Source: an uncultured Thermoplasmatales archaeon
GTDB taxonomy: Archaea; Thermoplasmatota; E2; DHVEG-1
DNA: 62,040 nucleotides
Reading direction: 5' to 3'
Assembly (NCBI GenBank): GCA_964391625.1
Contig: CAYMMP010000001.1
Location: 1-62,040 of the forward strand
The notes below the pieces were generated by a model, which had not been told where the DNA came from, made no database searches, and was given only the letters and a program-made list of their open reading frames with translations. Position 1 is the first letter of the stretch. Every line of letters begins with the position of its first letter. Of this stretch, positions 17,719 through 60,248 are shown one piece after another. The position numbers were made by a program, and so were the translations under genes.

Positions 17719-17731
17719 ATTTTTACCTCCT

Positions 17732-37153: not shown

Positions 37154-38358
37154 TGGATTTTAGTTTTACAAACGAGCAAGAATTGTGGAGAAAGACAGTA
37201 AGGGAATTTGCTGAAAAGAAAATAAAACCACGAGTAAGAGAGATAGATACAAATAAAAAAATCCCAGAGGAGATTATCAAAGATATGGGAAAACTGGGTT
37301 TACTAGCTCCAACTGCATCTAAGGAATACGGGGGGGCAGATCTAGATTGGACCATGGCATCAATAGCAGCAGAAGAATTAGGGCGAGCAGATATCAGTCT
37401 AGCGATACCTGTTCTATACTTGGTAGAAGCGGCATGGGGATTTATTTTAAGCAAGTACGGGTCAGAAGAAATTAAGGAAAAATATTTACCAAAAATCACC
37501 AAAGGTAAAGCTTTCTGCGGAATAGCTGTAACAGAGCCCGAAGGAGGCTCAGATATATTGGGTGCAGCTAAAACCAAAGCAGAGAAAAAAGGAAACAAAT
37601 GGATATTGAATGGAGAAAAAATATTCATAAGCGGAATAAGAGAATCAAGTAAGTGGGGAGGAGTTCATCTAACACTTGCAAGAACAAATCCAAAAACAGC
37701 TCACAAAGGATTTTCATTTTTTGCAGTACCATTAAAGGATAGTAAGAGCATTGAAACAACATTGTTTGAGGACATGGGAAGAATGGGAACATCTACAGGT
37801 GGATTCACTATGAGCAATGTTGAATTGCCATTATATCATCTTATAGGAGAAGAGAATAGAGGTTTCTATTATGCAATGGAAGGTTTTTCAGCTGCTAGAA
37901 CATTAATAGGTGCAACCTGTGTTGGTGCCGCAGAAGGTGCTCTAGAACTAGGAATAGATCACATAAAAAATAGAAAGGCTTTTGGACGTCCATTGGCAAG
38001 TTTTGAAGGGATACAATTTCCACTAGTAGAACACAAAACAAATCTTGAAAGTGTTAAGTTATTAACCTATAAAGCTGCCTGGACAATGGACAGATTCTAT
38101 AAAGAAAACAAAGGAACTCACCACGATATTGCAATAGCTGCTGCTATGACTAAGCTTCGAGCTCCTGTTAGAGCTTTTGAAGTTATGAACGAAGTGGCAG
38201 ATTGGTTGGGAGCAGTAGGTTATACAAAAGAATACCCTGTTGAAATGGGAATCAGAGGAGTACGATCATATTCAATAGGTGCGGAAGGTACAATGAACAT
38301 AATGAGAATAATTATTGCCAGAGAATTGCTTGGCAAGGATTTTTTACCCTATAAATAA
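37153..38358 (+). CDS. Acyl-CoA dehydrogenase family flavoprotein
   Basis: 401 aa. FCGIAVTEPEGGSDI, WILNGEKIFISG, C-terminal YSIGAEGTMNIMRIIIAREL. TAATG overlap with the larA-like gene. Confidence 0.85.
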   Translation: MDFSFTNEQELWRKTVREFAEKKIKPRVREIDTNKKIPEEIIKDMGKLGLLAPTASKEYGGADLDWTMASIAAEELGRADISLAIPVLYLVEAAWGFILSKYGSEEIKEKYLPKITKGKAFCGIAVTEPEGGSDILGAAKTKAEKKGNKWILNGEKIFISGIRESSKWGGVHLTLARTNPKTAHKGFSFFAVPLKDSKSIETTLFEDMGRMGTSTGGFTMSNVELPLYHLIGEENRGFYYAMEGFSAARTLIGATCVGAAEGALELGIDHIKNRKAFGRPLASFEGIQFPLVEHKTNLESVKLLTYKAAWTMDRFYKENKGTHHDIAIAAAMTKLRAPVRAFEVMNEVADWLGAVGYTKEYPVEMGIRGVRSYSIGAEGTMNIMRIIIARELLGKDFLPYK

Positions 38359-40919: not shown

Positions 40920-41399
40920 TTATTTATTGTTTTTAATAATTAATTGTATTTCATTAAATAGTTTGTCAGATATTGTTTGCATTTTTTGCTTTAACTCGAA
41001 TGAGAGATCATCACCAAATGAAGTATTTTTAGGTTGTATGCCAAAAATAAATAGTTTTTCTGGACTCTCATCAAGGGTTTTTGAAACTTGAATTATTTTC
41101 ATAATGTCTGATTCATGAGTGCTTATTGTTATTGGGATTTTTTGGCTTATGATATCATCTATACTTAGCAGTTGGGTTTCTCCAGGTTCTTTATTGATAT
41201 TTGCAGCATCAATAATAAGCACGATATCAAAACGTACAAGCTGATGAAGAAGATTCATCCCACCTGTTCCGCCATCAACATACTCAACATATGACGGTAA
41301 TTCGTCTTTTCTTTCAATTAGTTTTTGCAAAAGAAGTATACCTATACCATCATCCTGTCTAAGTGGATTTCCTATACCTATTATTCCAATTTTTTTCAT
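40920..41399 (-). CDS. [NiFe]-hydrogenase maturation endopeptidase
   Basis: MKKIGIIGIGNPLRQDDGIG...VDGGTGG...IIDA pattern of HycI/HoxW/FrhD-type proteases. The start is taken at M8 (41399), 1 nt after the large-subunit stop. Confidence 0.8.
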   Translation of the reverse strand: MKKIGIIGIGNPLRQDDGIGILLLQKLIERKDELPSYVEYVDGGTGGMNLLHQLVRFDIVLIIDAANINKEPGETQLLSIDDIISQKIPITISTHESDIMKIIQVSKTLDESPEKLFIFGIQPKNTSFGDDLSFELKQKMQTISDKLFNEIQLIIKNNK

Positions 41400-41400
41400 T

Positions 41401-42711
41401 TTAAACAAAGTTGACATCAATATAATGAGTACTACAGGAGATACACGGATCGTAAGCCCTTACAAGCATTTCAAGATTTAATTCTATTTCTTTTTCGGGT
41501 TTGTTGAGTATCTGTGGAACAAGTTCTTCCATATCTTTCTGGATGTTTGCATGATTCTGATTTGTAGGAATGATACAATTTGCCTTTAAACAACGTCCTT
41601 TTTCATCAAGAGTATAATCATGAACAAGTATGCCTCGTGGCACTTCAACAATTCCAACTCCGCGACCTGCTTTAGGTATTACACTTACAGGTTTTTCATC
41701 CTCAATCCCATCATCAACCAATTTATCAATCCATTTGATTGAATCTTCAATATTATGCACAAATTCTACAAGTTGTGCAACATTATTCATAAAAGGATTA
41801 TAACAAATTGGCTTGAGCTCAAACATGTTAGCAACATCTTGAGCAATTGGATGAAGCTGATTGCTATTTAAATTGAATCTTGCTAGAGCTCCCACCATAT
41901 ATGATTCTCTTTTATGTTTCGCGTGTTTTGCAGTAGAATGTGGCACTACAAACTCCTGCATAATTGATCTATAATCTTTATATTCTGGATGACGACCAGT
42001 ATCTGTCGATGCAATATCTCCATCATATAACGCATATTCATCATCTGACGTTAGGGCAATATACTCGGTTTCTCTCTCAAAATCAGGGAAATTGCCAGCA
42101 ACGCTTTTTACAACCTCGGCAACTTCTTTAGTTATCTTGATAGCATCTTCCAAATCTTTTTTTAGATTCAGAAGTTCTTTTTCAGTAGGAATCATTGAAA
42201 AACCGCCAACAACGAGTCGTATAGGATGGGTAGTCCTCCCACAAACTAAATCAGACATTTCGTTAGAAATTCTATGAAGTTTTACAATTTTAAGTAGGGC
42301 ATCTTGATTTTTACTGCCGACAAGTGGGAAAACACTACCAACTCCAAACAAATCAGGAACTGCAAGATAACCTACGTGAAGAATATGACTTTGCATATTC
42401 TCTGCATTAATAGCAAGTCGCCTGAGTATGCCTGTTTGCTTAGAGATTTCAATATCCAATGCATCTTCTGTGGCTTTTAAACTTGCTAGCGAATGTCCAA
42501 TTGAGCATATTCCACAAATACGCGAAGTTATTGGTCGAAGCTCGTCATAATGTCTTCCGCGCAACATTGCCTCAAAAAATCTTGGAGCCTCAGAAACTTG
42601 CCATTGAACTTTCTCAATTTTGCCTTTTTTTACATTTAAGACGATGTTTCCATGACCTTCAACTCTTGTAACATGCTCCACGTTAATGTCAAAATCTTTA
42701 CTCATGGACAT
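41401..42711 (-). CDS. hydA: [NiFe]-hydrogenase large subunit, group 3b (sulfhydrogenase alpha)-like
   Basis: RVEGHG, RICGICSIGH (L1) and C-terminal DPCISCSTH followed by only 7 residues. The gene context with AsrA/AsrB-like subunits supports group 3b. An alternative start at M3 (42705) would give an ATGA overlap. Confidence 0.85.
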   Translation of the reverse strand: MSMSKDFDINVEHVTRVEGHGNIVLNVKKGKIEKVQWQVSEAPRFFEAMLRGRHYDELRPITSRICGICSIGHSLASLKATEDALDIEISKQTGILRRLAINAENMQSHILHVGYLAVPDLFGVGSVFPLVGSKNQDALLKIVKLHRISNEMSDLVCGRTTHPIRLVVGGFSMIPTEKELLNLKKDLEDAIKITKEVAEVVKSVAGNFPDFERETEYIALTSDDEYALYDGDIASTDTGRHPEYKDYRSIMQEFVVPHSTAKHAKHKRESYMVGALARFNLNSNQLHPIAQDVANMFELKPICYNPFMNNVAQLVEFVHNIEDSIKWIDKLVDDGIEDEKPVSVIPKAGRGVGIVEVPRGILVHDYTLDEKGRCLKANCIIPTNQNHANIQKDMEELVPQILNKPEKEIELNLEMLVRAYDPCISCSTHYIDVNFV

Positions 42712-43451
42712 TCATCCCTCCCGTAATTATACAGTAAACTACGACTTTTTAGTTCTTCATATGTAAGGTCATATCTTTCCAGTATCTCCATTACGCATTC
42801 TACTTCTGGTTTCTTTAGAAGACCTCGACATCCATCACATGTACTGCCGTTTGTTGGACATATAGCACCACACCCTGCACGAGTTATGGGGCCAAGACAA
42901 AACTTCCCTTGCTCAAACAAACAAACATTTTCATTCTTTTTACATTCAACACAAACTGGATAATTTGGAATATTTGGTTTTTTACCAAGTGCAAGTGATG
43001 TTACAACATGCTTGAATTCATCTCGGTTGATAGGACAACCATGGATATAATAATCAACTGGTACAACCTCGTTTATAGCCTTTGTTTCAAAAACATCAAA
43101 ATACTCGTTATTTTCAAGATCAGCATCACCATATACTTCCTTTTTAACATCTTCAGGTGGCCATTGATTGCGAATTTTGTTTATGCCGCCAATAGTTGCA
43201 CAGGCACCTAGAGCAACAAGTATTTTAGCTCTGCTTCTAATCTCTCTAAGTCGAGCGGCATCCATTGGTCGCATAATTGATCCTTCAATAAATGCGATAT
43301 CATAGTCATCTGAATGTTCTTTCATAACCTCTCTAAAAGAAACAACATCCACAATATTTATTAAATCAAGGATTTCTTCTTCCAGGTTTGCTATTTGAAG
43401 TTGACATCCTTCACATGATGAAAAATCAAAGAATGCTACTTTCGGTTTCAT
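42702..43451 (-). CDS. hydD: [NiFe]-hydrogenase small subunit, group 3b (delta)-like
   Basis: KVAFFDFSSCEGCQLQI, ALGACATIGG, and C-terminal Cys clusters (CVECKKNENVCL..., GPITRAGCGAICP..GSTCDGC). Confidence 0.8.
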   Translation of the reverse strand: MKPKVAFFDFSSCEGCQLQIANLEEEILDLINIVDVVSFREVMKEHSDDYDIAFIEGSIMRPMDAARLREIRSRAKILVALGACATIGGINKIRNQWPPEDVKKEVYGDADLENNEYFDVFETKAINEVVPVDYYIHGCPINRDEFKHVVTSLALGKKPNIPNYPVCVECKKNENVCLFEQGKFCLGPITRAGCGAICPTNGSTCDGCRGLLKKPEVECVMEILERYDLTYEELKSRSLLYNYGRDECP

Positions 43452-45388
43452 TCGAATGCCTCCGGTAAGTTTTTAATTTGACTATATTGAAAGACGGGGC
43501 CTTCTTTACAAACATATATACCATTAATTTGACAATGTCCACATTTACCAACACCGCATTTCATATGCCTCTCAAGTGAAACGTAAATATTTTCATCAGG
43601 GAAACCCATGGTTTTCAAGGATTCGATTACAAATTTATAAACTACAGGTGGGCCTACTACGACAGCCATTGTGTCTTGAGACGCAGCTTTATCAAGATTT
43701 ATTTTCGGGAATAGCGTTGTAATAAGACCGATTTCTCCATCCCAACATTCACCTTCGGGGCATGTATCAACGGTTAATTTACATTCATAATCATCTAGAT
43801 TTTCTAGGCTCTTAAACTCATCTAAAAACATTGCCTCATTGGGTTCTTTACATCCATAAAGTATCTTTATATTCTTGAATTTATTTCTATTCTTTTTATC
43901 TGTAACATATAAATATAAGGATCTTAGTGGTGCAACCCCTAGACCAGCACAAACAAATATTATATTTTTGCCCTCCATTGCTTTAACATCAAATCCGTTT
44001 CCAAAGGGTCCACGTATACCAATTTTGTCTCCTGTTTTCATAGTAAAGAGTTTGGATGTAACGTTTCCAACTTTTCTTACAACAATCTGAAAAGTAGGTT
44101 TTTCAGTTGGGGGTGATGAAACAGAAATTGGTGCTTCTCCAACCCCTAAAACAGACACCTCAACAAATTGGCCGGGATTATGACCAAGGCTTTTCTTATC
44201 ATCAAGTTCGATTTCAAAAAGAGTTTCTCTTGAAGTTAATCTTTCAATACGTTTAATAGTGGCACTCCTTGGAATGTGAATAATGCCTTTCTCATCTATT
44301 TCTGTTTTTTGTTTTATAAAAAACTTGTTAGTTTCATCTGATTTTTCAAAGTGTGATAACTCGTTTATCATATTACATGGGTCTGCTATATTTGGAAGAC
44401 ATGCTATTCCACATCGCCCACATCCTACACATGCAACAAAGCCATAACGCTCTGGTAAATAATTCCCTTTTCTGTAGAATCTATGGCGAAATCTATCTGT
44501 TGTATCTTCACGAAAAACTTCTCCACTACCTATCTTAGTAAAATCGTGTAATAAACATCCATCCCATGTACGAAATCTTTCTCCTTCTTTGAGGTTTAGT
44601 GATACTTCATCCTTAACATTATAACAATAACAAGTTGGACATACCATGGTACATGAACTACAGCTCAGACATTTATCTGATTTTATTTTCCAGATAGTAT
44701 TATTATAATTTGCCACCAGATATTTTGACCATTCTTCTTTTTTTACATCTACTTTTTTCATATATTGTGAAGCAATCAAATTACGTTTTTTTTCAATCTT
44801 TCTTAGATCAGATTTTTTTGCATCCTTGACTCGAGCATATTCTTGCAATAGATTTTTTCCCTTTTTTGAGCCAATCGTTATAGCATATTTATTGCCAATG
44901 TCAGTAAGCATCAAGTCAAAACCAGAATCTGTAGTATGAGTATCCATGCTAGCTGCAAAAGAATATTTTGAAACATTTTGAATGTCTGTACCAATAATTA
45001 TTGTATTTTCACGTCGTTTTTTATAAAAATCATCTTCTTGAGAATCAAGATAATATTTATCCATCTGCTCGATAGCAATAATATCATACGGATGAATGCC
45101 GATGATTATTCTGGGTACATTGGCATCGCTTTTTTTAACATCAAAAGATTTTGATAAATCATAGTCCATAAGTTTTTCAATCTGGGGGAGAAAATATTTT
45201 TTTGGCGGAAGGATTGTCACATCATAATCAAGGCGCAATTCATTTGCAGTATTAAGTTGATCGAAAACAAATCTTTCACGCTTTTCTTTGACGCCAACGA
45301 CATCATATTTTCCTTCTTTTATTATGGCATTTACAAACTCATTGAACTCGTTTTTATTTATTATTTTGACATCTTCTAACTTAGGCAT
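43448..45388 (-). CDS. Fused sulfhydrogenase beta (AsrA/HydB-like) and gamma (AsrB/HydG-like FAD/NAD(P)/[2Fe-2S]) subunit
   Basis: N-terminal half: CLSCSSCTMVCPTCYC...CVGCGRCGIAC. C-terminal half: ferredoxin-NADP-reductase-like fold (GQFVEVSV, GPFG, IFVCAGLGVAPL) ending CGVGKCGHCQ. ATG 45388 is preceded by GGTGA. Confidence 0.75.
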   Translation of the reverse strand: MPKLEDVKIINKNEFNEFVNAIIKEGKYDVVGVKEKRERFVFDQLNTANELRLDYDVTILPPKKYFLPQIEKLMDYDLSKSFDVKKSDANVPRIIIGIHPYDIIAIEQMDKYYLDSQEDDFYKKRRENTIIIGTDIQNVSKYSFAASMDTHTTDSGFDLMLTDIGNKYAITIGSKKGKNLLQEYARVKDAKKSDLRKIEKKRNLIASQYMKKVDVKKEEWSKYLVANYNNTIWKIKSDKCLSCSSCTMVCPTCYCYNVKDEVSLNLKEGERFRTWDGCLLHDFTKIGSGEVFREDTTDRFRHRFYRKGNYLPERYGFVACVGCGRCGIACLPNIADPCNMINELSHFEKSDETNKFFIKQKTEIDEKGIIHIPRSATIKRIERLTSRETLFEIELDDKKSLGHNPGQFVEVSVLGVGEAPISVSSPPTEKPTFQIVVRKVGNVTSKLFTMKTGDKIGIRGPFGNGFDVKAMEGKNIIFVCAGLGVAPLRSLYLYVTDKKNRNKFKNIKILYGCKEPNEAMFLDEFKSLENLDDYECKLTVDTCPEGECWDGEIGLITTLFPKINLDKAASQDTMAVVVGPPVVYKFVIESLKTMGFPDENIYVSLERHMKCGVGKCGHCQINGIYVCKEGPVFQYSQIKNLPEAFE

Positions 45389-45460
45389 AATTTTCACCAA
45401 ATTAAATGTTAATATAACTCCTTACCCCGTATCGCAGAATATTATAATAGTTTTACTAGA

Positions 45461-46423
45461 TTAAACTTCTATCTTGATTGGTCCGAGTTTTTCAAGCTTT
45501 TTAGCAAAATCTTTTATCATGCCTTCAAGTTTGGCAGATTCTCCTGTTGAAACCCATTCAAGTTTAACACGCTCTGGCTCAATATTTAGATCTTTAAGAA
45601 CATTTTTTAGCAATATCAAACGTCTTCGTGCTTTGTAGTTACCATTATGATCACATTCTTCGGGTGGGCAACCAGCAACCATAACGCCCCAGGCACCCTC
45701 CTCAAAAGCATCGAGTACTAGTTCAGGGGCAACACGGCCTGAGCACATTGTAACAATAATACCATGTGGCGTCTTAATAAGTGTCTCAGTTTCACTAAGT
45801 TGCATACCAGGGAATACCGACCAGTTGCAAGCGAAAACTAACAACTTTTTATCCTCATCTTTAAGGACTTCTTTTACACTTTCGTGAAGCTCTGGGAGGG
45901 TTACATTACAGCCTTCTTTCTGAGTGATCGCACCAGATGGACAAGCCGCAAGACATAATCCGCATCCACGGCATTCAATTTTATCAACTTTGACTTTCAG
46001 TTTACCTTTTCCGGTATCAACAATCTTTAATGCATCATATTTACAAAGTGACATGCAAATACCACATACGCTACATAACTCTTCATCGATATGTGCAATT
46101 GTGCCTTCAACCTCAAAACCTGCATTAATTAAGTCAGCACGAGCATCTGTAAGAATGTCTGTAACAGGAACGCCTGCTGAACAGTTGTCAGAACAATTTT
46201 TACAATAAAAGCATTGAAATATCTTGTCTACAATTTCTTGTGTTGGTTTTATTTTTTCTGTAATCATCCCATAGACCATAAGAAGCTTTCCGCGAGGAGT
46301 GTCTGATTCCCAACCATACGATTTGAAAAGGGGGCACAATTCATAACAATAACCACATCGTATGCATTTATCTAACTCATTTTCCCACTTTTTAGTTCTT
46401 TCGAATTCGATATTCTTTGCCAT
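45461..46423 (-). CDS. GlcF/HdrD-N-type ferredoxin + 2x[4Fe-4S] ferredoxin + MvhD-like domain fusion protein
   Basis: CIRCGYCYELCPLF...TPRGK, CFYCKNCSDNCSAGVP, CSVCGICMSLC, CRGCGLCLAACP, FACNWS...MCSGRV...GCPPEECDHNGN. No CCG motifs are present. Confidence 0.7.
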   Translation of the reverse strand: MAKNIEFERTKKWENELDKCIRCGYCYELCPLFKSYGWESDTPRGKLLMVYGMITEKIKPTQEIVDKIFQCFYCKNCSDNCSAGVPVTDILTDARADLINAGFEVEGTIAHIDEELCSVCGICMSLCKYDALKIVDTGKGKLKVKVDKIECRGCGLCLAACPSGAITQKEGCNVTLPELHESVKEVLKDEDKKLLVFACNWSVFPGMQLSETETLIKTPHGIIVTMCSGRVAPELVLDAFEEGAWGVMVAGCPPEECDHNGNYKARRRLILLKNVLKDLNIEPERVKLEWVSTGESAKLEGMIKDFAKKLEKLGPIKIEV

Positions 46424-46424
46424 T

Positions 46425-47858
46425 TTATTTCCCCACTTTGTACCGGAGACCTGTTGCTTTCACCCAGTCATTAGGAGCATCCATCAATTTATGAGGATTG
46501 AGAATATTATTTGGATCTAGTGCTTTTTTAATGGCCCACATCATTGGAAGTATATCTTTTCTTGCTTTCTTCCAAGCTGGCGCTTTAGAAAGACCTATCC
46601 CGTGCTCAGCTGATGTTACCCCACCAATGGAATGCACATAATCATATAGTTCTTCGACCACCTTCTCTGCATCTTTCCATTGACTTGCTTTTTTTGGATC
46701 AAGCATAATCTTGGTATGAATTACGCCAGATCCACAATGTCCATATACTGCCATAATAACATTATTTCGTTTGGCTATCTCATGAATTTTTTTTGCGCAT
46801 TCTGCAACCTTTGAATTTGGAACACCCATATCATCTGCAAGATCTGTGCAAACAATTCCTTCTTTGTATTTTGATAGAGAAGCAAAAAGTTTCTTTCGTC
46901 CACCAAAGAGTCTCTGTCTCTCTTTTGCATCGTAACTTACTTCTATACCGTATCCTTTATGTTTCTCGCAAATTTCTTTCATTTTTTTTATTTCATAATC
47001 AATTGCGCTTTTCACATTTCCATCGGCTTCAAAAAGTATAATTGCTCCCACTTCAGGAAGACCGAGATTAAGTGCTTTGTTTACAGCAACAATACCTATC
47101 CCATCCATCAATTCAAGTAATGAAGGTTGAGCTCCACTTGCAATAATCTCAGAGATTGCATTGCCGGCATCTTCAAGTTTGTCAAAATCTGCAACACCAA
47201 GACAGCGATACTTTGGAAGAGGATATATTCTCATCGTTGCCTCAACAACAATTCCAAGAGTGCCTTCTGCTCCTACTATGAGTCTCTCAAGTTGGTAACC
47301 AGATGAGTGCACACGGGTGTTTGAACCAAGATTTACAAGAGAGCCATCTGCAAGAACAACTTTCATCCCCATCACATAATCACGTGTAGCTCCATATTTT
47401 ACAGACCTTACTCCAGATGCATTTGCACCAATTTCTCCACCAATCGTTGCAATACGACTAGACGCAGGTGCAGGTGGATAAAACAAGCCATATGGTTTCA
47501 AAGCACGATTAAGATCATCATCAACAACTCCTGGTTCAACCCTAACAAGCATATCCTCAGGAACAATTTCAAGAATACGATTCATATGTTTCATGTCCAA
47601 TACAATTCCACCATCAATAGGTACTGAATGGCCACTTGTTCCTGAACCAGCACCTCTAGGCACCACAGGTACTTTGTTTTTGTTAGCATATTTGATAATT
47701 TTTTGAACTTCTTCAATTGTTTTTGGTCGAATAACAACCTGTGGCATTGCCTGATGCACAGAAGCATCACTAGAATATGCGTACAAGTCAACAGGATTGT
47801 TTGTAATATTCTCAGGTCCAACTATTTTTTTAAGATATTCAAAATCAATTTTTTTCAT
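46425..47858 (-). CDS. FAD-linked oxidase, GlcD/D-lactate dehydrogenase family
   Basis: 477 aa. PVVPRGAGSGTSG (FAD-PCMH motif), TSAEHGIG near the C-terminus, ILNPHKL. Confidence 0.85.
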   Translation of the reverse strand: MKKIDFEYLKKIVGPENITNNPVDLYAYSSDASVHQAMPQVVIRPKTIEEVQKIIKYANKNKVPVVPRGAGSGTSGHSVPIDGGIVLDMKHMNRILEIVPEDMLVRVEPGVVDDDLNRALKPYGLFYPPAPASSRIATIGGEIGANASGVRSVKYGATRDYVMGMKVVLADGSLVNLGSNTRVHSSGYQLERLIVGAEGTLGIVVEATMRIYPLPKYRCLGVADFDKLEDAGNAISEIIASGAQPSLLELMDGIGIVAVNKALNLGLPEVGAIILFEADGNVKSAIDYEIKKMKEICEKHKGYGIEVSYDAKERQRLFGGRKKLFASLSKYKEGIVCTDLADDMGVPNSKVAECAKKIHEIAKRNNVIMAVYGHCGSGVIHTKIMLDPKKASQWKDAEKVVEELYDYVHSIGGVTSAEHGIGLSKAPAWKKARKDILPMMWAIKKALDPNNILNPHKLMDAPNDWVKATGLRYKVGK

Positions 47859-47859
47859 A

Positions 47860-48279
47860 TCATCCAGTCTCCTTTATAGGGGACGGGCCTAATTTTTTTA
47901 ATTCACTCACAAAATCAGTGACCACCTGAGCAAATTTCTGCCCCTCCGAAGCAGAAATATACTCAAAACGTACTCTTTCAGATTTTACACCCATATCCGC
48001 CAAAAGTTTTTTCAAAAGTTTAACACGACGGTTGGTTTTGTAATTTCCAGATTGATAATGACAATCGCCAGGATGACATCCTGCTATTAACACCCCATCA
48101 GCACCTTTTTTTAGAGCTTCAAGAATGAAAACAGTATCTACCCTGCCAGAGCACATCACCCTAATGGATTTAATATTTGCAGGGTATTTTATTCTACTAG
48201 TCCCTGCTAGATCTGCCCCAGCGTAAGAACACCAATTACAGAGAAAACCAATAATATTTGGTTCAAATTCTTTTGCCAT
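47860..48279 (-). CDS. mvhD: MvhD/FlpD-type [2Fe-2S] electron-transfer subunit
   Basis: MAKEFEPNIIGFLCNWCSYAGADLAGTSRIKYP...RVMCSGRVD...GADGVLIAGCHPGDCHYQSGN. ATG 48279 is preceded by AGGTGA. Confidence 0.85.
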   Translation of the reverse strand: MAKEFEPNIIGFLCNWCSYAGADLAGTSRIKYPANIKSIRVMCSGRVDTVFILEALKKGADGVLIAGCHPGDCHYQSGNYKTNRRVKLLKKLLADMGVKSERVRFEYISASEGQKFAQVVTDFVSELKKLGPSPIKETG

Positions 48280-48284
48280 TTTTT

Positions 48285-48755
48285 TCACCTCAATTTATGA
48301 TTTTTTATCTCATTTACTGTCATTTCAATGGCCGTTGGTACAGCCCGCTCAATCTCTTTACTGAGATTTTCACCAAATTCACATGGGATTTCTTTCATCA
48401 TTATTCCAATTATGATAATTTCTTTTGGGATTCTGTCCTCCCCTAGTTTTTTTGCCATCTCAATCGCTTCTATGAGCGATACATCGTGTGGATTACACGA
48501 ATGCATTGTTGTAAAGTTGCTTAATGGGATTCTCCTAACTTCTCCCGTCTTACTACTTTCTGACTTCACTGCATCTATTATTATTGCCTTGTCGTATCCA
48601 AGGAGCAGGTCAAGAAGGTTCATACCCCCAGTTATTGCTTCGCCTATTGTAACATCGGGAGATTTTACGTGTTTTTTTAACTCATTCGCTACGTGAACTC
48701 CGACTCCATCATCACCCAATATTAGGTTTCCTACACCAAGGATTATTATTTTCAT
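48285..48755 (-). CDS. [NiFe]-hydrogenase maturation endopeptidase
   Basis: MKIIILGVGNLILGDDGVG...GGMNLLD...IIIDA pattern. Confidence 0.8.
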   Translation of the reverse strand: MKIIILGVGNLILGDDGVGVHVANELKKHVKSPDVTIGEAITGGMNLLDLLLGYDKAIIIDAVKSESSKTGEVRRIPLSNFTTMHSCNPHDVSLIEAIEMAKKLGEDRIPKEIIIIGIMMKEIPCEFGENLSKEIERAVPTAIEMTVNEIKNHKLR

Positions 48756-48760: not shown

Positions 48761-50221
48761 TTACAGATTTTGTTTTAATTTCTTGTACAGTTTTTTATTA
48801 TAGTCGTAAATATCTATTTCAAGAGGTAATCCGCCAGGCAATGTATGAGTGGCACATGCAAAACATGGATCATAAGCTCTAAAGGCCATCTCAACCAAGT
48901 TCAGTATTCCGTTGTCAACTTTGCCGTTTTTTATGACGCCTTTTGCAGCATCACGAATCGACATGTTGATCGCGCCTGAGTTATTGGTCGTTGCAACAAT
49001 TAAATTTGCTTTATCAATAAGTCCATCTTTTGTTAGCTTATAATGATGTATCAATGTACCACGAGCAGCCTCAGTGACACCCATTCCTTCCCCAGGCTCT
49101 CCTACAGGATTTCTAATCTTCTGAGAAGTGATTTCGGGATCATTTATAAGTTCCTTTGCCCGTTCAGTTGCATACAAAAGTTCAATTAGTCTCGCCCAGT
49201 GGAAGGCTAACGTTGAATTTACTGGTCTGCCACCAAGTGTCTCATAAAATCTCTTATATTCTTTATTTGCAAGCGGGGTCGCCATACCTTCAGCAGCATT
49301 TAATCTGCCTAATGGACCGACTCTGTAAATACCACTGTTTTTACCATCAGTAAAACCATTCCATCCTACGGACTTCAAGTAAGGGAATTTTATATACGTC
49401 CATTCCTCAACACGCTCTTCAATGTACTTATAATAGTCATTCACATCGAATTTGGCTTTTTCATCTCCTTTTTGATCTGTAACTCTTATCATTCCATCAT
49501 AAAAGTTCACGTTGTTATTTTTATCAACAAGACCCATATTATACGTCGCAAGTTGATAGGGATCGCTTAAAATCAAATCAACGTATTTCTTATTTGCTAG
49601 AACTATATCATCAAAAAGTTTTAAAGAAAACTTGGCAAATTCTATGCAGGAATCTACCATCTTTTTGATATCTGTCACTTCATCTTTGTTTAGTCCTTTT
49701 GAAATTCCACCAGGCAATCCACATACTGGATGAGTTGCCTTACCACCAAGTATGGCTGTAATCTTTTGACCATATGCACGATGCTTGATTACTTCTTTAC
49801 CAATCTCAACGCCTGCTTTTTCTATCACACCAATTATATTGCGTTTTGCAGGTGGAGTATCTGGGCCAACTACAAAATCAGGGCCACCCAAGTAATAGAA
49901 ATGTAAAGTATGGTCGTAGATGTAATACCCCATATACATCAATTCTCTGAGTTTTTTTGCGGCTGATGGGGGATCGACATTGAATGCCCTATCCAAAGCT
50001 TTGGTTGCAGCAAAATGATGAGCAACTGGACACACTCCGCAAATACGAGAGGTAATCTGCGGCATGTCCTCTGCTCTTCTTCCCTGAGCAAAGCGTTCAA
50101 ATCCTCTAAGCTCAGGAATTTGAAGATACGCATTTTCAACATTCCCTTTGTCGTTAAGGAAGATACTGATTTTGCCATGACCTTCTAAACGAGTTATTGG
50201 ATCAATAGTAATTGTTTCCAT
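48761..50221 (-). CDS. mvhA: F420-non-reducing (Mvh-type, group 3c) [NiFe]-hydrogenase large subunit
   Basis: RLEGHG, RICGVCPVAH, and C-terminal DPCFACATH followed by a 28-aa cleavable extension. It lies adjacent to mvhG, mvhD and hdrABC. Confidence 0.85.
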   Translation of the reverse strand: METITIDPITRLEGHGKISIFLNDKGNVENAYLQIPELRGFERFAQGRRAEDMPQITSRICGVCPVAHHFAATKALDRAFNVDPPSAAKKLRELMYMGYYIYDHTLHFYYLGGPDFVVGPDTPPAKRNIIGVIEKAGVEIGKEVIKHRAYGQKITAILGGKATHPVCGLPGGISKGLNKDEVTDIKKMVDSCIEFAKFSLKLFDDIVLANKKYVDLILSDPYQLATYNMGLVDKNNNVNFYDGMIRVTDQKGDEKAKFDVNDYYKYIEERVEEWTYIKFPYLKSVGWNGFTDGKNSGIYRVGPLGRLNAAEGMATPLANKEYKRFYETLGGRPVNSTLAFHWARLIELLYATERAKELINDPEITSQKIRNPVGEPGEGMGVTEAARGTLIHHYKLTKDGLIDKANLIVATTNNSGAINMSIRDAAKGVIKNGKVDNGILNLVEMAFRAYDPCFACATHTLPGGLPLEIDIYDYNKKLYKKLKQNL

Positions 50222-51210
50222 TACTTCACCACCTTCCTATTAATCAAAGCAGATGGAAGAGCATACTTATAGAACGTTCCAACAGGATCAACGACCTGAT
50301 CAATAAGTTTTTGAACTTCTTCATCGCTCATTTTCTCTTCACCTTCAATTCCAAGAATTGATGCAAGTGCGGATATCATCTTTGCACCTTGGTCTAAAGA
50401 ATTGGGTGTAGGGCCACCACAGCCAGTACAGGGCATATTGGCATCCAAGCATCTTGCATCGCACCCTCCACGTGTTGCTGGACCCATACAGATGATTCCT
50501 TGCTCAAGCAAGCACTTATCTTCGATTTTTTCAACTTCATATACTCTTTTTATCTCTGTGATTTTCTTTTCAGTTTTTTCAAAACGACATTCATCACAAA
50601 CAGATTTCATTGGACCAATAACAGATCCTTTTGGTGGTAGTTTATTTTCAACAATTGCACCTACGGCAGTCATTATTTGGTCTGGTGTTGGCGGACAACC
50701 TGTTAGATAATAATCAACATCAACTGTCTGGTCAAGTGTTTTTACGGTATCATAAAATTCTGGGAGAGTAAGTGTTCCCTCTTTGACTTTAACGCTTGTT
50801 TTTGGAACAATAGTTTTAGGATTAACAGTAGATGGATTATCCAAATAGGCGGTTGCAAAAACTTCCTCACGATTTGCAACATTTGCAAGTCCTGGAATTC
50901 CACCATTAACTGCACAGGCTCCAAACGCAACCATGACCTTTGATTTCTTTCTCAAAAGTTTTGCGATGTGTTCTTGCTCTTCAGTTCTAATCGCCCCATT
51001 GAAAAAACAGATATCTATGTGATTATCCTTCATCGCTTCGACATCTTTATACTTAAAATCCATAGCTACTGGCCAGAACAGGATGTCTGCTATCGCGATT
51101 ACATCCAATATTTTTTCATCTATGTCTAAAACAGCTATTTCGCATCCACCACAACTTGCAGCCCAATAGAAAGCCAGTTGCAGTTTCTTCTTTTCTTCTT
51201 TTTTAGTCAT
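50221..51210 (-). CDS. mvhG: Mvh-type [NiFe]-hydrogenase small subunit
   Basis: AASCGGCEIAVLD, AFGACAVNGG, and distal Cys clusters (CDECRFEK..., CMGPATRGGCDARC..., CTGCGGP). Confidence 0.8.
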   Translation of the reverse strand: MTKKEEKKKLQLAFYWAASCGGCEIAVLDIDEKILDVIAIADILFWPVAMDFKYKDVEAMKDNHIDICFFNGAIRTEEQEHIAKLLRKKSKVMVAFGACAVNGGIPGLANVANREEVFATAYLDNPSTVNPKTIVPKTSVKVKEGTLTLPEFYDTVKTLDQTVDVDYYLTGCPPTPDQIMTAVGAIVENKLPPKGSVIGPMKSVCDECRFEKTEKKITEIKRVYEVEKIEDKCLLEQGIICMGPATRGGCDARCLDANMPCTGCGGPTPNSLDQGAKMISALASILGIEGEEKMSDEEVQKLIDQVVDPVGTFYKYALPSALINRKVVK

Positions 51211-51220: not shown

Positions 51221-52102
51221 TTATTTTTTATAAACCCCTTTTTTCTTTAATAATAGAGTTGGATCAACAGCATGTTGATCAAAACCACAAACACTTGGAT
51301 CGAGTCCTAATGCTATGGCAATAAGTTGAGTGTAATAATATGTAGGGATCTGTTTATATCCCTTAAACATTCTTTCTGCTTCTTTTCCGCGAACATCAAT
51401 ATTATATCTACATAAAGGACAAGAAAGAACCATGGCCTCGGCATCGCGCTCAAGTGCATAATTTGTAATTCTATATGCTCGTTTGGAAACAATTTCTTTC
51501 TCATCAATCGTATGATAAGAACCACAACATTCAATTTTGAATGGGTTGTCAACAGCTTCTGCACCAAGAGCAATTAAAAGATCTCTAAGAATTGTCGGTT
51601 CTTCAGCATCATCGATAGCAACTTCGCGTGGACGGAGCAACATACAACCATAGTACGGCATGATTTTTATGCCTTTTAATGGATTTTTTACCCTTTTTTT
51701 AATGACATCAAATCCTACTTCATCACGTAAAAATTCCAGGAAATGTATTACTTCAACTGTTCCTTTATAGTCATTTTCCCTATCCATAAAAAGATTTAAT
51801 GTTTCAAGATCGTCAGGGTTTTCTTTGACTCGCAGACTGGTTTGCTTCAGAGTGTTGTAGCACATATCACATAATGCTACAACCTTGTTTTCACCCTGAT
51901 CTTCGACATGGATAAGATTCCGAAGTGGCGCCAGATGATGCATAAGATCATCGTCAGTAAGTGATGCGACAACGCCACAACAGTTCCAGTCTTCCATTTC
52001 AACTAGTTCATGACCTAATGCGTCCATTATAGCATATGCTGATTTTTCAAGATTTTTTGCAGATGTTTTGAGTGTGCAACCAGGGAAATACAATAGTTTC
52101 AT
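51221..52102 (-). CDS. hdrB: Heterodisulfide reductase subunit B (two CCG domains)
   Basis: MKLLYFPGCTLK..., WNCCGV, YYGCMLLRP, IECCGSYH. ATG 52102 lies 4 nt after the hdrC stop; the track TTG start at 52114 is less likely. Confidence 0.85.
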   Translation of the reverse strand: MKLLYFPGCTLKTSAKNLEKSAYAIMDALGHELVEMEDWNCCGVVASLTDDDLMHHLAPLRNLIHVEDQGENKVVALCDMCYNTLKQTSLRVKENPDDLETLNLFMDRENDYKGTVEVIHFLEFLRDEVGFDVIKKRVKNPLKGIKIMPYYGCMLLRPREVAIDDAEEPTILRDLLIALGAEAVDNPFKIECCGSYHTIDEKEIVSKRAYRITNYALERDAEAMVLSCPLCRYNIDVRGKEAERMFKGYKQIPTYYYTQLIAIALGLDPSVCGFDQHAVDPTLLLKKKGVYKK

Positions 52103-52106
52103 TTCA

Positions 52107-52460
52107 TTACCCAATATTTTTTCTAAACAAACTTACAAATGCAAGTTGAGGAATAGTCTCTCTTTCTTTTTTAGAAATCTTTACGACATTTGTTCGATCA
52201 ATTTTTTTCCTCAAGACTATTTGACGCAGAGCTTCCATAATTTTTGTAATATTTAAATCACGAGGACATCTTTCTGCACATGTATAACATGATGCGCACA
52301 TCCAAATCGTATTTGAATTCAACACTTCCTTTCTATTCAGTATTACATATCTAATTACCTTATCAGGACCTAAATCCATATCCTCGATAAACGGACAACC
52401 AGCAGAACAAGTTCCACATTGATAACATGCAAACAGGTTTTCTCCAGAGAGCTCTTTCAC
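52107..52460 (-). CDS. hdrC: Heterodisulfide reductase subunit C
   Basis: CYQCGTCSAGCP and CASCYTCAERCP in a 117-aa protein directly upstream of hdrB. Confidence 0.85.
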   Translation of the reverse strand: MKELSGENLFACYQCGTCSAGCPFIEDMDLGPDKVIRYVILNRKEVLNSNTIWMCASCYTCAERCPRDLNITKIMEALRQIVLRKKIDRTNVVKISKKERETIPQLAFVSLFRKNIG

Positions 52461-52528: not shown

Positions 52529-55500
52529 TCAGACAGCCACCTCCTCCTTAAGAAGAGCATCTAGCATTACCTCAATCTGCTCGTTTTTGAATCCTTTCTG
52601 TTGTATTGCACCTGATGGGCAAGCACCTGCACATGCACCGCATCCCTTACAAAGAGCTCGATTAACTGTAGCTACAAGACGATCAGGATTGTCTTGGCGA
52701 GGTTTAATTTCAATAGCAGAAAATGGACATACAGCCTCACATGTTTTACATCCACTACATAGTTCTTCGTCTACCTCGGCTACCTGCCCCTCACCTTTCA
52801 TTCTCCCCTGCATAATTGGAATTGCAGCTCTAGATGCCGCGCCTTCAGCTTGAGCAATTGAATCTACAAGATTTTTTGGATAATGTGCAGCTCCACACAA
52901 ATAAATACCATCAGTTGCAAAATCCAATGGACGGATCTTTGCATGCGCTTCCATGAAAAAACCTCCAGTGCCTGCAGGAATCTTAAGCATGTTTTTCAAG
53001 GCCTCAGTAGACTCTGCTCCTTCAATATTAATCATAAGAACTACAAGATCAGCAGGAATTTCCAGTTCTTCATTTAGGATATCATCATAAACTTTTACGG
53101 TTACAGAACCTTCCTTTGGGTCATCTTTGTCAAGAAGGACCTTTGGTTTCTTATCACCGGCGTAGCGAATAGTTGTGACATGATAATTTTTCAAAACATC
53201 AGAATAATACTCCTCTTCCTCTTTACCAAAAACCCGCATATCTCTATATAATATATATACCTTAGAACCTGGGAATTTCTCACTAACAATCTTTGCATTC
53301 TTAATAGATACTCCACAGCCAACACGGCAACAATAAGGACGCTTTTCATCCATTGCACCAGCACAATTAATAAAAACAATATTTTTAGGTTCCTTTTTCA
53401 AATTCAAAGAATTGTTTTTAATCCTTTTTTCCAAATCGATTTGTGATAAAATATTACTGTTCTTGCCATACTGATACTCACCCTCAAGATCGACCTCTTT
53501 AAAACCAGTTGCAATGATAATCGTTCCAAACTCCATCTCTTTGATTTTGCCGTTTTGCTTTATTTTCCCAGTATAATTGCCAATAAAACCATCGACATCA
53601 ACAATCTCAGCATTAGTCATAACATTGATCAACTTGTTTTTTGTAACCTCTTTAATCAATGGATCGATAATATCCTCTGTCTTTACATCAGATGGAAACA
53701 TAGAATAAAGTTCTCTAAGCTCTCCACCAAGTTTTGGGTTCTTTTCAATAAGAATAGATTTAATACCCATATTAGCTAAAGCAAGGGCAGCTTTCATACC
53801 TGAAAGGCCACCACCAATGACAAGAGTTTTTGGAATAATTGAAAATTCTTCCTCAGGAAGTGGTTCAAGCAATCTCACTTTTGCCACAGCAGCTTTAACC
53901 AGAGCGGTTGCTTTTTTAGTCGCTGCATCCCAATCATCAGAATGAACCCAAGAGCATTGATTACGTATATTAGCCATTTCAAAAAGATATTTATTCAAAC
54001 CTGCTTCCATAAGCGTGTCTCTAAATAACCCGCCATGAGTACTTGGCGTACAAGCGGCAACAACAACCCTGTTTAGCTTTTTTTCTTTAATCGTTTCTCT
54101 AATTTTTTTACCACTATCCTCGGAACAAGCAAACATTACATGCTCTGCATATTCAACATTTGGCAGTTTTTCAGCAGATTTAGTAACCTTTTCTACATCT
54201 AGATAGCTGGCAATGTTTTTACCACAATGACAAACAAATACACCCACTCGTGGTTCTTCACGAGTTACATCAATTTCTGGTGGGAAGTTCTTACCAACAT
54301 GACGCTCCCGATCCTTAATTGACTCAACTGCTTTTGCAGCAGCACCACTTGCCATAGCTACACTATCAGGTATATCTTTTGGACCTTGGATACAGCCAGC
54401 AAGGAATATACCGTCTTTTGTTGACTGAATTGGATTGTTTAACAATGATTGTTGTTTGAAAAAACCATTTTCATCAACATCCACCCCAAGTATTTCACCA
54501 AGTCTTTTATTATCGCGGTTGGGAACTATCGCAGTAGATAACACAAGCATATCTACTACGTCTTCCTTTACCTCATCAGTAAGTGTATTTTTATAACGAA
54601 TTGTTAAACTTTTATCCTTGTTTTCATAAACCGAAGAAGGTCGTCCACGAATATATCTGACACCAAGGTCTTTGGCATGATTATAATACTGTTGAAAATC
54701 TTTACCATAAGCACGAATATCCATATAATAAATTGAAATATCAATATCTGGGTTTGCCTCTTTAACAATAGAAGCTTCCTTAGTTGCATACATACAACAC
54801 ACACGTGAGCAGTAAGGAAAACCTAGTTGTGCACTACGTGAGCCTACACACTGAATCCAACCAATGGTCTTAGGTTTTTTACCATCAGAAAGTCGCACAG
54901 GCTTTCCTTCAGTAGGCCCAAAAGATGACAGTAATCTTTCGAACTGCATTGCAGTCATCACATTTTCATACTTGCCATAACCATACTCGCGTCTCATTTC
55001 AGTAGGCTCAAATACTTCAAACCCTGTTGCAACAATAACGCTACCAACATTTACCTCTATTTCTTCAGATTTTTCAAGAAAACTTATTGCCTCTGGTTCA
55101 CAAACCCGATCACATGACCCACAACCTATACAGTTTTCATGGTCAATTGTATAAACAATTGGTACTGCCTGTGGGAATTCAATATATATTGCTTTACGAG
55201 TTGTAATTTTTTCGTCAAAATTGCTTACCACATCAACAGGGCAAACCTCTACACAATCATTGCATCCAGTACATTTATCAGGATCAACATATTTGCTTTT
55301 CTTCCAAACCTGTGCTTTAAAATTTCCTTTTTTACCGTCAAGTGAATTAAGTTCAGCATAAGTAATAAGTTCAATATTAGGATGGCGGGAAAGCTCAACC
55401 ATCTTTGGTGCTGATGTACAAATGCTACAATCATTTGTTGGAAATGTCTTATCAAGTTTGACCATTGATCCGCCAATTGTTGAAGACTTATCAATAATCA

Positions 55501-57151: not shown

Positions 57152-57152
57152 A

Positions 57153-58334: not shown

Positions 58335-58603
58335 TTATTTTTTCCTCCAGCTGGACTTATAAGTGGTTTTCTCCCATCTTTTTTAGCTTCTTTATCTGGA
58401 ATTACAGTTATTGCAAAGTCAGGGCAGACGAGTTCACATAGTCTGCAAAAGTTACACTCATTTTTTTCTTTTAGTTGTGGCGGATGAATGCCCTTTTTAT
58501 TTAGTCTGTCCGACTCTTCAAGTGCATTAACAGGGCATCGTTCTATGCATATGCCGCAGCCTTTGCACCAGTCCTCATTTATTTCTATCATAACTTCCCT
58601 CAT
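58331..58603 (-). CDS. korD: 2-oxoacid:ferredoxin oxidoreductase delta subunit (2x[4Fe-4S] ferredoxin)
   Basis: CKGCGICIERCP and CNFCRLCELVCP in 90 aa. ATGA overlaps on both sides. Confidence 0.75.
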   Translation of the reverse strand: MREVMIEINEDWCKGCGICIERCPVNALEESDRLNKKGIHPPQLKEKNECNFCRLCELVCPDFAITVIPDKEAKKDGRKPLISPAGGKNK

Positions 58604-60246: not shown

Positions 60247-60248
60247 AA

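Follow-up and report, generated by a model that had tools for sequence, protein, structure and literature searches.

The window analysed here, 62,040 nt of contig CAYMMP010000001.1 from an uncultured Thermoplasmatales archaeon, carries on its minus strand a gene for a GlcD-type flavoprotein followed directly by a gene for an iron-sulfur (Fe-S) protein that ends in an MvhD domain, and it is this gene pair, its partners and its probable substrate that concern us. Open reading frame (ORF) positions and translations were inspected in the window, and the ORF layout bears out the three adjacent genes of the original prediction, which had been made from the DNA letters alone, with gaps of 1 nt between MvhD and GlcD and between GlcD and the fusion protein:

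45461-46423, minus strand: Fe-S fusion protein, the predicted electron-transfer subunit, 320 aa, with a GlcF/HdrC-type 2x[4Fe-4S] domain, a ferredoxin 2x[4Fe-4S] domain and an MvhD/FlpD domain
46425-47858, minus strand: GlcD-type, flavin adenine dinucleotide (FAD)- and metal-dependent D-2-hydroxyacid dehydrogenase, the predicted catalytic subunit, 477 aa (Pfam)
47860-48288 (from a GTG start) or 47860-48279 (from the ATG of the original prediction), minus strand: stand-alone MvhD (FlpD, 3.5e-57)

The fusion had been described as a GlcF-like protein of Fer4-Fer4-FlpD architecture in which the usual CCG domains are replaced, and a check with Pfam profile hidden Markov models agrees with that description. 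All of the motifs quoted for it (CIRCGYCYELCP, PRGK, CFYCKNCSDNCSAGVP, FACNWS, MCSGRV and GCPPEECDH) occur in the translations. Residues 16-85 match Fer4_8 and Fer4_17 (E = 1.8e-13 and 1.5e-13), residues 110-167 match a Fer4 dicluster (Fer4_21, 1.7e-13), and residues 195-314 match FlpD (PF02662) at 4.6e-36, with 124 bits against a cutoff of 22.3. Together the three domains tile aa 16-314 of 320, and thus leave no space for a CCG domain. Indeed, no match to CCG (PF02754) was found in the fusion at E <= 0.01 in the Pfam run, in which HdrB served as the positive control and matched CCG at 7e-21, and none was found with NCBIfam either; the possibility of cryptic CCG domains is therefore rejected.

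Each part of the fusion has recognisable relatives. The N-terminal domain, with its CX2CX2CX3CP ... CX2CX2CX3C pattern, aligns over aa 9-94 to positions 14-98 of the 409 in the NCBIfam GlcF model, and resembles the N-termini of LutB, LdhH and GlpC in the same collection. The remainder, aa 98-319, matches the ferredoxin and MvhD tail of Methanosarcina HdrA2 at 5.1e-52, covering only positions 559-777 of the 777 in that profile (NF040770), so that its 177 bits fall far below the cutoff of 1100 for full-length membership. The GlcF equivalog is likewise not reached by the fusion (49 bits, cutoff 333), nor is the VhuD/MvhD cutoff of 215 (NF045873) by either the fusion (60.5 bits) or the stand-alone MvhD (150 bits); across the genes considered here, the curated NCBIfam equivalog cutoffs for GlcD, GlcF, VhuD, HdrA2, LarA and the malate racemase MAR all lie above the scores obtained. 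By sequence, the C-terminal domain matches the solved MvhD chain 5ODC_D at 2.2e-29. In a Foldseek search with the AF2 model of the fusion, MvhD chains alone were significant (5ODH_D at 1.5e-10 with a target-normalised TM of 0.78, and 8RVU_F and 7BKB_F with target-normalised TM of 0.82 and 0.79), and the significant structural matches are all MvhD subunits, taken from Hdr complexes whose electron donor is a hydrogenase, a formate dehydrogenase or Elp. Twenty Cys residues are invariant in 71 of the 71 fusion family members. Sixteen of these, including all eight in the N-terminal domain, account for four [4Fe-4S] clusters, and the other four (C199, C227, C252 and C257) lie in the FlpD domain, where they are the putative ligands of a [2Fe-2S] cluster; the CxxC usual in MvhD ('CCNWC') is down to a single Cys in the fusion ('ACNWS').

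The pair recurs widely. When genomes were scanned, one for each GTDB species, 247 fusion matches were confirmed; 80 loci were kept from these, and the locus counts given below cover those 80. By tblastn, nearly all of them have a GlcD homolog (58-88% identical) as the immediate upstream neighbour of the fusion gene; the fusion genes of L024, L025, L026 and L027 are without one. Independent ORF clustering, which covered 74 loci, placed GlcD in 68 and a racemase in 53; this clustering undercounts neighbours in the high-GC Acidobacteriota (13 of 18 loci), and the tblastn counts are the more reliable. Directly downstream of the fusion, most bacterial loci carry a gene of the LarA family that is 46-54% identical to a racemase gene at 35894-37153 of the window (tblastn). 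The kept loci span the Thermoplasmatota and at least six bacterial phyla, with fusion identities of 62-83% in Thermoplasmatota, about 50% in Dehalococcoidia/Chloroflexota and WOR-3, and 36-42% in Acidobacteriota, Desulfobacterales, Syntrophorhabdaceae, Myxococcota and Pirellulaceae, and two copies occur in a sulfate reducer that is in culture, Desulfocicer vacuolatum DSM 3385.

Protein searches extend this distribution. A word-indexed search with the fusion returned 527 matches; the best 120 of these are all 74-100% identical and 316-339 aa long, and the few among them that are named by source bear the labels of Thermoplasmata/Thermoplasmatales metagenome-assembled genomes (MAGs), SG8-52-1, SG8-52-4 and M9B1D. 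An exhaustive search of 50%-identity representatives brought up 10,802 proteins with parts of the fusion architecture. Only a handful of them (P0121, P0122, P0124) are full-length with a GlcF-type N-terminus, the others being HdrC-like-Fd-FlpD fusions (Fd, ferredoxin) or HdrA C-termini; for two distantly related HdrC-like-Fd-FlpD fusions, P0155 and P0190, the gene context was seen on contigs of <2 kb. On metagenome contigs, more remote members keep the glcD-fusion-larA trio. GlcD and the fusion form a conserved unit, and this pair is both widespread and uncharacterised; a full-text literature search found no description of an enzyme made of GlcD and a Fer4-Fer4-FlpD protein, the nearest trace being a COG context table in Desguin 2020.

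The catalytic half of the pair had been assigned to the GlcD/D-lactate dehydrogenase family of flavoproteins, and that assignment holds. The protein carries FAD_binding_4 (8.9e-47) and FAD-oxidase_C (1.3e-53), and its best PDB match is Acetobacterium woodii LctD (7QH2_C, 1.8e-78), followed by a glycolate oxidase and mouse D-lactate dehydrogenase, which places it in the 2-hydroxyacid dehydrogenase clade; D2HGDH is more remote (1.8e-42). The two GlcD equivalogs are not reached, with 383.8 bits against a cutoff of 567.9 for TIGR00387 and 285.5 bits against 897 for NF008408. Membership in an alkyl-dihydroxyacetone-phosphate-synthase-like or other non-hydroxyacid clade was considered and rejected, the match there being to the FAD domain only (2e-30). 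The active-site residues of LctD are Arg328, His377, His384, Glu422 and His423 (PMC9232219). R321, H374, H381, E418 and H419 of the window GlcD align with these five, respectively, and are invariant in 66 of 66 cassette GlcDs; the conserved set comprises the carboxylate-binding Arg, the His/His/Glu metal triad and the catalytic His. Judged by its solved relatives and these residues, the GlcD subunit is a genuine 2-hydroxyacid dehydrogenase.

Which 2-hydroxyacid it handles is best approached through the racemase that accompanies it:

35894-37153, plus strand: LarA-superfamily nickel-pincer racemase, ortholog of the cassette racemases (Lar_N, 1.5e-59)

A LarA-like racemase 8 kb from the pair was part of the original prediction; its presence and its distance stand. 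The best PDB match of the protein is the malate racemase Mar2 (6D6Z, 1.2e-63; best lactate racemase, 8.7e-52), and its best NCBIfam model is NF052593 (MAR, LarAH6) with 374 bits, below the cutoff of 500, against 294 bits for LarA (NF033504), also below cutoff (460). At positions 175/176/358/359 of LarA1, lactate racemases have F,F,W,E/Q, malate racemases x,x,H/Q,K and 2-hydroxyglutarate racemases Y,F,H/Q,T (PMC11770544). The window and cassette racemases share the motifs EPHYFAGYTGG and LGYHKAA, and hence the signature Y,F,H,K, the H-K being set on W358-T359 by a HMMER alignment to 5HUQ; Y,F is found at 175/176 in 53 of 53 racemases and H,K at 358/359 in 49 of the 53. The window racemase thus has the malate signature H/Q,K and lacks the lactate signature F,F,W,E/Q, and Mar-type enzymes show no lactate racemase activity (Table 1 of PMC7583248). 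As a side observation, the racemase gene shares one base with the gene of an acyl-CoA dehydrogenase (the two together spanning 35894-38358, plus strand) that is best matched by models for acryloyl-CoA reductase and glutaryl-CoA dehydrogenase; this arrangement suggests an operon.

The substrate pocket of GlcD points the same way. The residue two after the second metal His is Lys383 in all 66 cassette GlcDs; at the equivalent place LctD has Tyr386, mouse LDHD Ile407 and a glycolate oxidase Leu, and both human D2HGDH (Asn443) and 3PM9 have Asn. This position lines subsite B, the site of the substrate side chain, and mouse LDHD, whose subsite B is hydrophobic, rejects both D-malate and D-2-hydroxyglutarate (D-2-HG), which human D2HGDH accepts (PMC7801405, PMC10589216). 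The hydrophobic subsite B of the LctD/LDHD-type D-lactate dehydrogenases is not found here, its place being taken by Lys383. Lactate and glycolate, the substrates first proposed, are probably wrong in view of the malate-racemase signature and the invariant Lys383, and we have downgraded lactate as the default on the same racemase and pocket signatures. Because Lys appears in the side-chain pockets of both enzymes and C4-acid genes accompany them, our best guess at the substrate pair is D-malate/oxaloacetate, which we regard as the most likely one. The neighbours in question are fumarase, fumarate reductase and an oxaloacetate-forming carboxyltransferase in Dehalococcoidia, and, in the window, a fumarate reductase (Frd) pair, a 2-oxoglutarate-type 2-oxoacid:ferredoxin oxidoreductase (OFOR) and a phosphoenolpyruvate carboxykinase (PEPCK).

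In the window, the pair closes a co-directional minus-strand array of Fe-S/TfrA-like, OFOR, tandem HdrA, HdrC-HdrB, MvhGA, protease and MvhD genes, and the next gene to share this direction, beyond the hydrogenase block, is that of PEPCK, which uses or produces oxaloacetate:

60249-61040, minus strand: 263-aa Fe-S protein with Fer4 domains
58600-60246, minus strand: TfrA-like fumarate reductase flavoprotein (NF004900 TfrA, 315 bits, below cutoff)
55734-58603, minus strand: OFOR delta, alpha, beta and gamma subunits, best models of the 2-oxoglutarate type (NCBIfam)
52529-55783, minus strand: tandem HdrA, two modules fused, 1084 aa (NF040770 HdrA2, 1053 bits)
52107-52460, minus strand: HdrC (Pfam)
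51221-52114, minus strand: HdrB with two CCG domains (Pfam)
50221-51210, minus strand: small subunit of a group-3c-like [NiFe] hydrogenase (ORF; ortholog in the related locus L001 with Pfam Oxidored_q6)
48761-50221, minus strand: large subunit of the same hydrogenase (ORF; L001 ortholog with Pfam NiFeSe_Hases/HoxH)
48285-48755, minus strand: hydrogenase maturation protease (ORF; L001 ortholog with Pfam HycI)
38900-40792, minus strand: GTP-dependent PEPCK (PEPCK_GTP 1.1e-106, PEPCK_N 4.5e-63)

Among the OFOR subunits, alpha scores 556 bits with NF006412 (above its cutoff of 411), beta 279 bits with the 2-oxoglutarate-type model NF007207, delta 69 bits with OGOR_delta and gamma 208 bits with NF006323. 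The first module of the tandem HdrA aligns over aa 70-435 to residues 145-511 of HdrA (5ODC_A) and is without the N-terminal domain; the second aligns over aa 509-683 to HdrA 2-176, the N-terminal domain, and over aa 887-1079 to 462-651, the C-terminal ferredoxin, with no match reported in the 5ODC_A comparison to the inserted ferredoxin region of HdrA. On this alignment the tandem protein looks to be effectively a covalent HdrA heterodimer of two non-identical modules, and it is kept in related Thermoplasmatota (1072 aa in L001). The window HdrC and HdrB share ORF clusters with the HdrC/HdrB-like genes beside the Dehalococcoidia cassette. In a tblastn search of the window with bacterial neighbours, no MetVF, RACo or carboxyltransferase was found.

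The order hdrA-hdrC-hdrB-mvhG-mvhA-hycI-mvhD-glcD-fusion is kept in those Thermoplasmatota loci that reach far enough upstream, complete MAG chromosomes included. The original prediction counted the stand-alone MvhD as one of two GlcD partners, a role that gene context leads us to reject. It follows mvhG-mvhA-hycI, and because no bacterial cassette has such a gene directly upstream of glcD (the nearest, in L030 only, comes after hdrA, about 3 kb upstream), we read it as the hydrogenase's own, most likely the delta subunit of the adjacent MvhGA enzyme. A locus labelled 'Candidatus Woesearchaeota' (L022, WJKY01000010.1) reads mvhGA-hycI-mvhD-glcD-fusion-ShyBC at 71-90% identity to the window, and is probably a mis-binned Thermoplasmatota contig. 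On the other side of the pair, the window has a group-3b 'sulfhydrogenase' whose beta (ShyB/HydB-like) and gamma (ShyC/HydG-like) subunits are fused into one protein of 650 aa (43448-45400, minus strand), followed by delta, alpha and protease genes (40920-43451); at this position L001 has MvhD, FrhB-like, separate ShyB-like and ShyC-like genes, and another HdrA-like gene.

The window also holds a second fusion copy (18838-19836, minus strand, 332 aa, 62% identical), which has the Fer4_8-Fer4-FlpD architecture, no GlcD neighbour, and orthologs in other Thermoplasmatales MAGs (L024, L025). Downstream of it lies a second Hdr-type cluster (11316-18088, minus strand):

17732-18088, minus strand: DsrE-like protein (label by eye only)
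17494-17718, minus strand: TusA-like protein (label by eye only)
16995-17438, minus strand: MvhD
15672-16979 and 13996-15783, minus strand: split HdrA, two overlapping ORFs in different frames
12863-13999 and 11757-12866, minus strand: two FrhB-like proteins
11316-11756, minus strand: another MvhD

Its two split HdrA ORFs mirror both modules of the fused tandem HdrA, and the DsrE-like and TusA-like labels, if right, hint that this cluster is sulfur-linked.

In other lineages the pair keeps different company. The Dehalococcoidia order is carboxyltransferase 12S, 5S, GlcD, fusion, racemase, fumarase alpha, HdrC, HdrB, Fe-S protein, Frd flavoprotein and fumarase beta, and the Frd flavoprotein and Fe-S protein of the window are 52% and 50% identical, respectively, to the Dehalococcoidia pair. 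A TfrA-like flavoprotein and an Fe-S protein of ~260 aa recur beside HdrC/HdrB in archaea and bacteria alike (50-52% identity between the domains), in the window (58600-61040) and in L028, L034 and L026, which suggests an HdrBC-linked fumarate reductase module that is independent of a thiol cofactor. In about 20 of the 80 loci, from Acidobacteriota, Desulfobacterales and Myxococcota, the racemase is followed by metV-metF; RACo is present as well in the Desulfobacterales, where a convergent metV-metF-hdrA-mvhD operon is also frequent. The Acidobacteriota operon, glcD-fusion-racemase-metV-metF, has no HdrA within 9 kb, and therefore suggests direct wiring of MvhD to MetV and, with it, the possibility of an electron link between hydroxyacid and methylene-tetrahydrofolate (methylene-THF). 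MetV/MetF also stand directly beside Fd-FlpD-type fusions at L091:102-1431, L049:8558-13943 and L059:8233-17002. Most of the 80 loci have no hydrogenase genes nearby, and neither etf genes nor a lactate permease occurs among the named recurrent neighbour clusters.

Overall, we favour an enzyme pair that acts on the D-malate/oxaloacetate couple and is connected to Hdr/Mvh-type modules through five Fe-S clusters, a reading to which we assign roughly an even chance and for which we infer the identity of the substrate, the physical docking and the direction of electron flow. The two proteins would form a soluble heterodimer, a D-2-hydroxyacid:acceptor oxidoreductase, in which the GlcD subunit, with FAD and a divalent metal, would interconvert D-2-hydroxyacid and 2-oxoacid and pass hydride to or from FAD. 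The fusion would stand in for the CCG-bearing subunit of the GlcF/HdrD type: its N-terminal GlcF/HdrC-like domain would accept the flavin electrons, and a chain of four [4Fe-4S] clusters would lead them to the [2Fe-2S] cluster of the C-terminal MvhD domain. That domain would be the plug, docking onto whichever MvhD-accepting module the host provides, be it the tandem HdrA here, MetV in the MetVF operons, or HdrC/HdrB-fumarate reductase in Dehalococcoidia. The nickel-pincer malate racemase would then connect D-malate to L-malate, and the whole could act as a ferredoxin/Hdr-linked stand-in for NAD-dependent L-malate dehydrogenase. In the window archaeon the docking partner is probably the tandem HdrA of the same array, which would tie malate/oxaloacetate to HdrCB and the fumarate-reductase-like pair, to 2-oxoglutarate:ferredoxin oxidoreductase and to the Mvh hydrogenase.

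The original prediction went further and had hydroxyacid oxidation feed HdrA. The co-directional array of HdrA, HdrCB and MvhGA genes supports this for the window archaeon, where an Hdr link is plausible; HdrA as a general partner is not supported, an HdrA-like gene lying within about 8-10 kb in 22 of the 80 loci. Energetics constrain the idea as well. The oxaloacetate/malate couple lies at about -170 mV and pyruvate/lactate at -190 mV, compared with +30 mV for fumarate/succinate, -140 mV for CoM-S-S-CoB, -200 mV for methylene-/methyl-THF, -414 mV for H+/H2 and about -450 to -500 mV for ferredoxin. A donor at about -170 to -190 mV therefore cannot drive Mvh-like bifurcation to ferredoxin and disulfide, and given these potentials an input to HdrA needs either another acceptor, such as fumarate, or the reverse, confurcating direction. 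Three schemes could be consistent with this. In the first, a reductive one, H2 would drive bifurcation with oxaloacetate or fumarate as high-potential acceptor, so that their exergonic reduction would pay for the reduction of ferredoxin, which would serve 2-oxoglutarate synthase. The other two are oxidative. In the second, electrons from malate and from reduced ferredoxin would confurcate to H2 at low H2 pressure. In the third, electrons would pass from malate to fumarate, with or without ferredoxin reduction. The fuller proposal, that the pair and the malate racemase make up a flavin-based electron-bifurcating or -confurcating malate dehydrogenase system with an MvhD plug to HdrA, MetVF or HdrCB-fumarate reductase, is one that we put forward tentatively, expecting it to be wrong rather than right. 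If it is true, anaerobes could bypass the strongly endergonic NAD-dependent oxidation of malate, the reduction of oxaloacetate and fumarate could in reverse yield reduced ferredoxin from H2, and the large malate-racemase group of the LarA superfamily would gain a physiological role.

Several observations weigh against a malate enzyme wired into Hdr-type modules. The GlcD protein is overall nearer to lactate dehydrogenases (LctD, LDHD) than to D2HGDH, and the Dehalococcoidia context fits the classical lactate-to-propionate pathway equally well. With its shortfall against the MAR cutoff (374 against 500 bits), the racemase may represent a distinct specificity group; LarAH 'group 4' has the gene context COG0247, COG0277 and COG1908, the MAR2 group COG0247 and COG0277 (Desguin 2020 Table S1), and the one member tested from 'group 4', which shares the COG context of our cassette, was inactive (Desguin 2020). 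The Thermoplasmatota racemase genes stand apart from the pair, the window copy lying 8 kb away on the opposite strand, and no fumarase was found in the window by tblastn with bacterial neighbours. As for docking, the tandem HdrA has only one canonical N-terminal domain for two MvhD-type modules to bind, and no HdrA-like gene was found near the fusion in the Acidobacteriota or Dehalococcoidia loci, nor in most bacterial loci. Confidence in the AF2 model of the whole fusion is low (pLDDT 66), and the middle ferredoxin domain is not resolved in it.

The first of these points lead to the alternative that survives best, a D-lactate dehydrogenase, which we regard as unlikely. A lactate racemase would supply D-lactate, and electrons would pass through the Fe-S/MvhD protein to fumarate reductase, MetVF or HdrA, making the pair an Fe-S analogue of the confurcating Ldh-EtfAB and, for the fumarate reductase route, part of a lactate-to-propionate type of metabolism. 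In that route pyruvate is the carboxyl acceptor, and the carboxyltransferase 12S/5S, fumarase and fumarate reductase of the Dehalococcoidia match its textbook form; many host lineages, Desulfobacterales among them, use lactate, and the closest solved homolog is a lactate enzyme, A. woodii LctD, with mouse D-lactate dehydrogenase after it. True LarA genes, moreover, cluster with GlcD-type lactate dehydrogenase, EtfAB and lactate permease (Desguin 2020 Table S1 group 1), a permease that is missing from the named recurrent neighbour clusters here. What also tells against lactate is the racemase, which reads Y,F,H,K, not F,F,W,E/Q (Mar-type enzymes were inactive on lactate, PMC7583248), and the invariant Lys383 at a subsite-B position that is hydrophobic in lactate enzymes.

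A dehydrogenase for D-2-hydroxyglutarate, or for another hydrophilic 2-hydroxyacid such as tartrate, glycerate or citramalate, feeding 2-oxoglutarate to the adjacent OFOR, is the weaker, third option behind malate and lactate, and we think it improbable. The OFOR upstream of hdrA is indeed of the 2-oxoglutarate type by its best NCBIfam models, and a positively charged subsite B is a hallmark of D2HGDH, which accepts D-malate too; homology to D2HGDH is, however, weaker (1.8e-42) than to the lactate enzymes, and in the HMMER alignment, which is ambiguous because of a one-residue indel, the Lys401 position of D2HGDH is not Lys and the Asn443 position is Lys. Three of the four signature positions of the racemase (Y,F,H,K) are shared with 2-hydroxyglutarate racemases (Y,F,H/Q,T), and the fourth, Lys at 359, is a marker of malate where those racemases have Thr; the fumarase and carboxyltransferase neighbours, too, indicate C4 acids.

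Least probable of all, in our judgement, is that the fusion is mainly a variant MvhD or polyferredoxin of the hydrogenase-Hdr machinery, next to GlcD through shared regulation and forming no complex with it: the public label 'hydrogenase iron-sulfur subunit', the window paralog at 18838-19836 and the fusions of L026 and L027, all without GlcD, favour this, and against it stand the GlcD gene immediately upstream, at gaps of 1 nt or little more, in nearly all of the 80 loci, most of them hydrogenase-free nearby, and an N-terminal domain of the GlcF/LutB/GlpC type, which serves flavin dehydrogenases. The L026 fusion is a case of its own. In this unclassified bacterial MAG (3595-13827) it comes directly after mvhG-mvhA-hycI, in the mvhD slot, and precedes hdrC-hdrB-hdrA, an Fe-S protein and an Frd flavoprotein, where it appears to act as an extended MvhD.

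Returning to the malate/oxaloacetate oxidoreductase, its significance is best seen beside systems that are already known. For anaerobes, the steps between malate and oxaloacetate and between lactate and pyruvate are classic bottlenecks of a thermodynamic kind, and to our knowledge only an Etf-based solution to the lactate bottleneck, Ldh-EtfAB, has been described so far, so that an Fe-S/MvhD-based solution would be a second, independent design beside it. Ldh-EtfAB (LctBCD) of Acetobacterium woodii (7QH2) provides the closest GlcD homolog, with catalytic and metal residues kept; a LarA-superfamily racemase gene accompanies the dehydrogenase gene in both systems, and in both the potential of the couple is too high for unaided reduction of NAD+ or ferredoxin, which leads one to expect a coupling device. 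The devices differ: the partner in Ldh-EtfAB is the flavoprotein EtfAB, whereas here it is a five-cluster Fe-S/MvhD protein, and Tyr386 of LctD is Lys in the present enzyme, whose racemase is of the malate and not the lactate type.

D2HGDH, known from human and from Pseudomonas aeruginosa (PaD2HGDH), belongs to the same family and sets a precedent for the oxidation of D-malate in a positively charged pocket. That pocket is built with Lys401 and Asn443 in D2HGDH and with Lys383 here, and the descriptions of D2HGDH consulted include no Fe-S partner; its physiological acceptor is the electron-transferring flavoprotein. Among racemases, Mar1/Mar2 (LarAH5/LarAH6) are the nearest relatives, Mar2 being the best PDB and NCBIfam match and sharing the H,K signature, though the window racemase lies under the curated cutoff and may be a separate subgroup. 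Nickel-pincer malate racemases, for which the literature consulted (PMC7583248) establishes no role in vivo, would find in the cassette their first concrete physiological setting.

The electron-transfer side invites other comparisons. GlcDEF, the GlcD/HdrD-like D-lactate dehydrogenases and the GlcD-HdrD proteins of methylotrophic methanogens share with our pair a GlcD protein and a GlcF/HdrC-type N-terminal domain, and differ in having two CCG domains where the fusion has ferredoxin and MvhD domains. HdrABC-MvhD-MetVF of Moorella thermoacetica resembles those loci, about a quarter of the 80, in which MvhD-type modules are encoded with MetV/MetF, and also L091, where a MetV-like gene comes after a related HdrC-like-Fd-FlpD fusion; it differs from the window, which has no MetVF, and from the Acidobacteriota operon, which has no nearby HdrA. 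Finally, MvhD is the adaptor between a donor enzyme, hydrogenase or formate dehydrogenase, and HdrA, and the C-terminal 125 residues of the fusion resemble the MvhD of MvhAGD-HdrABC, Fdh-Hdr-Fmd and Elp-Hdr (5ODC, 7BKB, 8RVU) in sequence, in fold and in four Cys. In those complexes and in HdrA2, MvhD is free or fused to HdrA, whereas here it forms part of a flavin dehydrogenase's Fe-S subunit. The hydroxyacid couple, as donor, lies about 230 mV above H2 or formate. In this context, the fusion of MvhD to the Fe-S protein of an enzyme that oxidises organic acids would bring carbon substrates within reach of the HdrA/MvhD toolkit.

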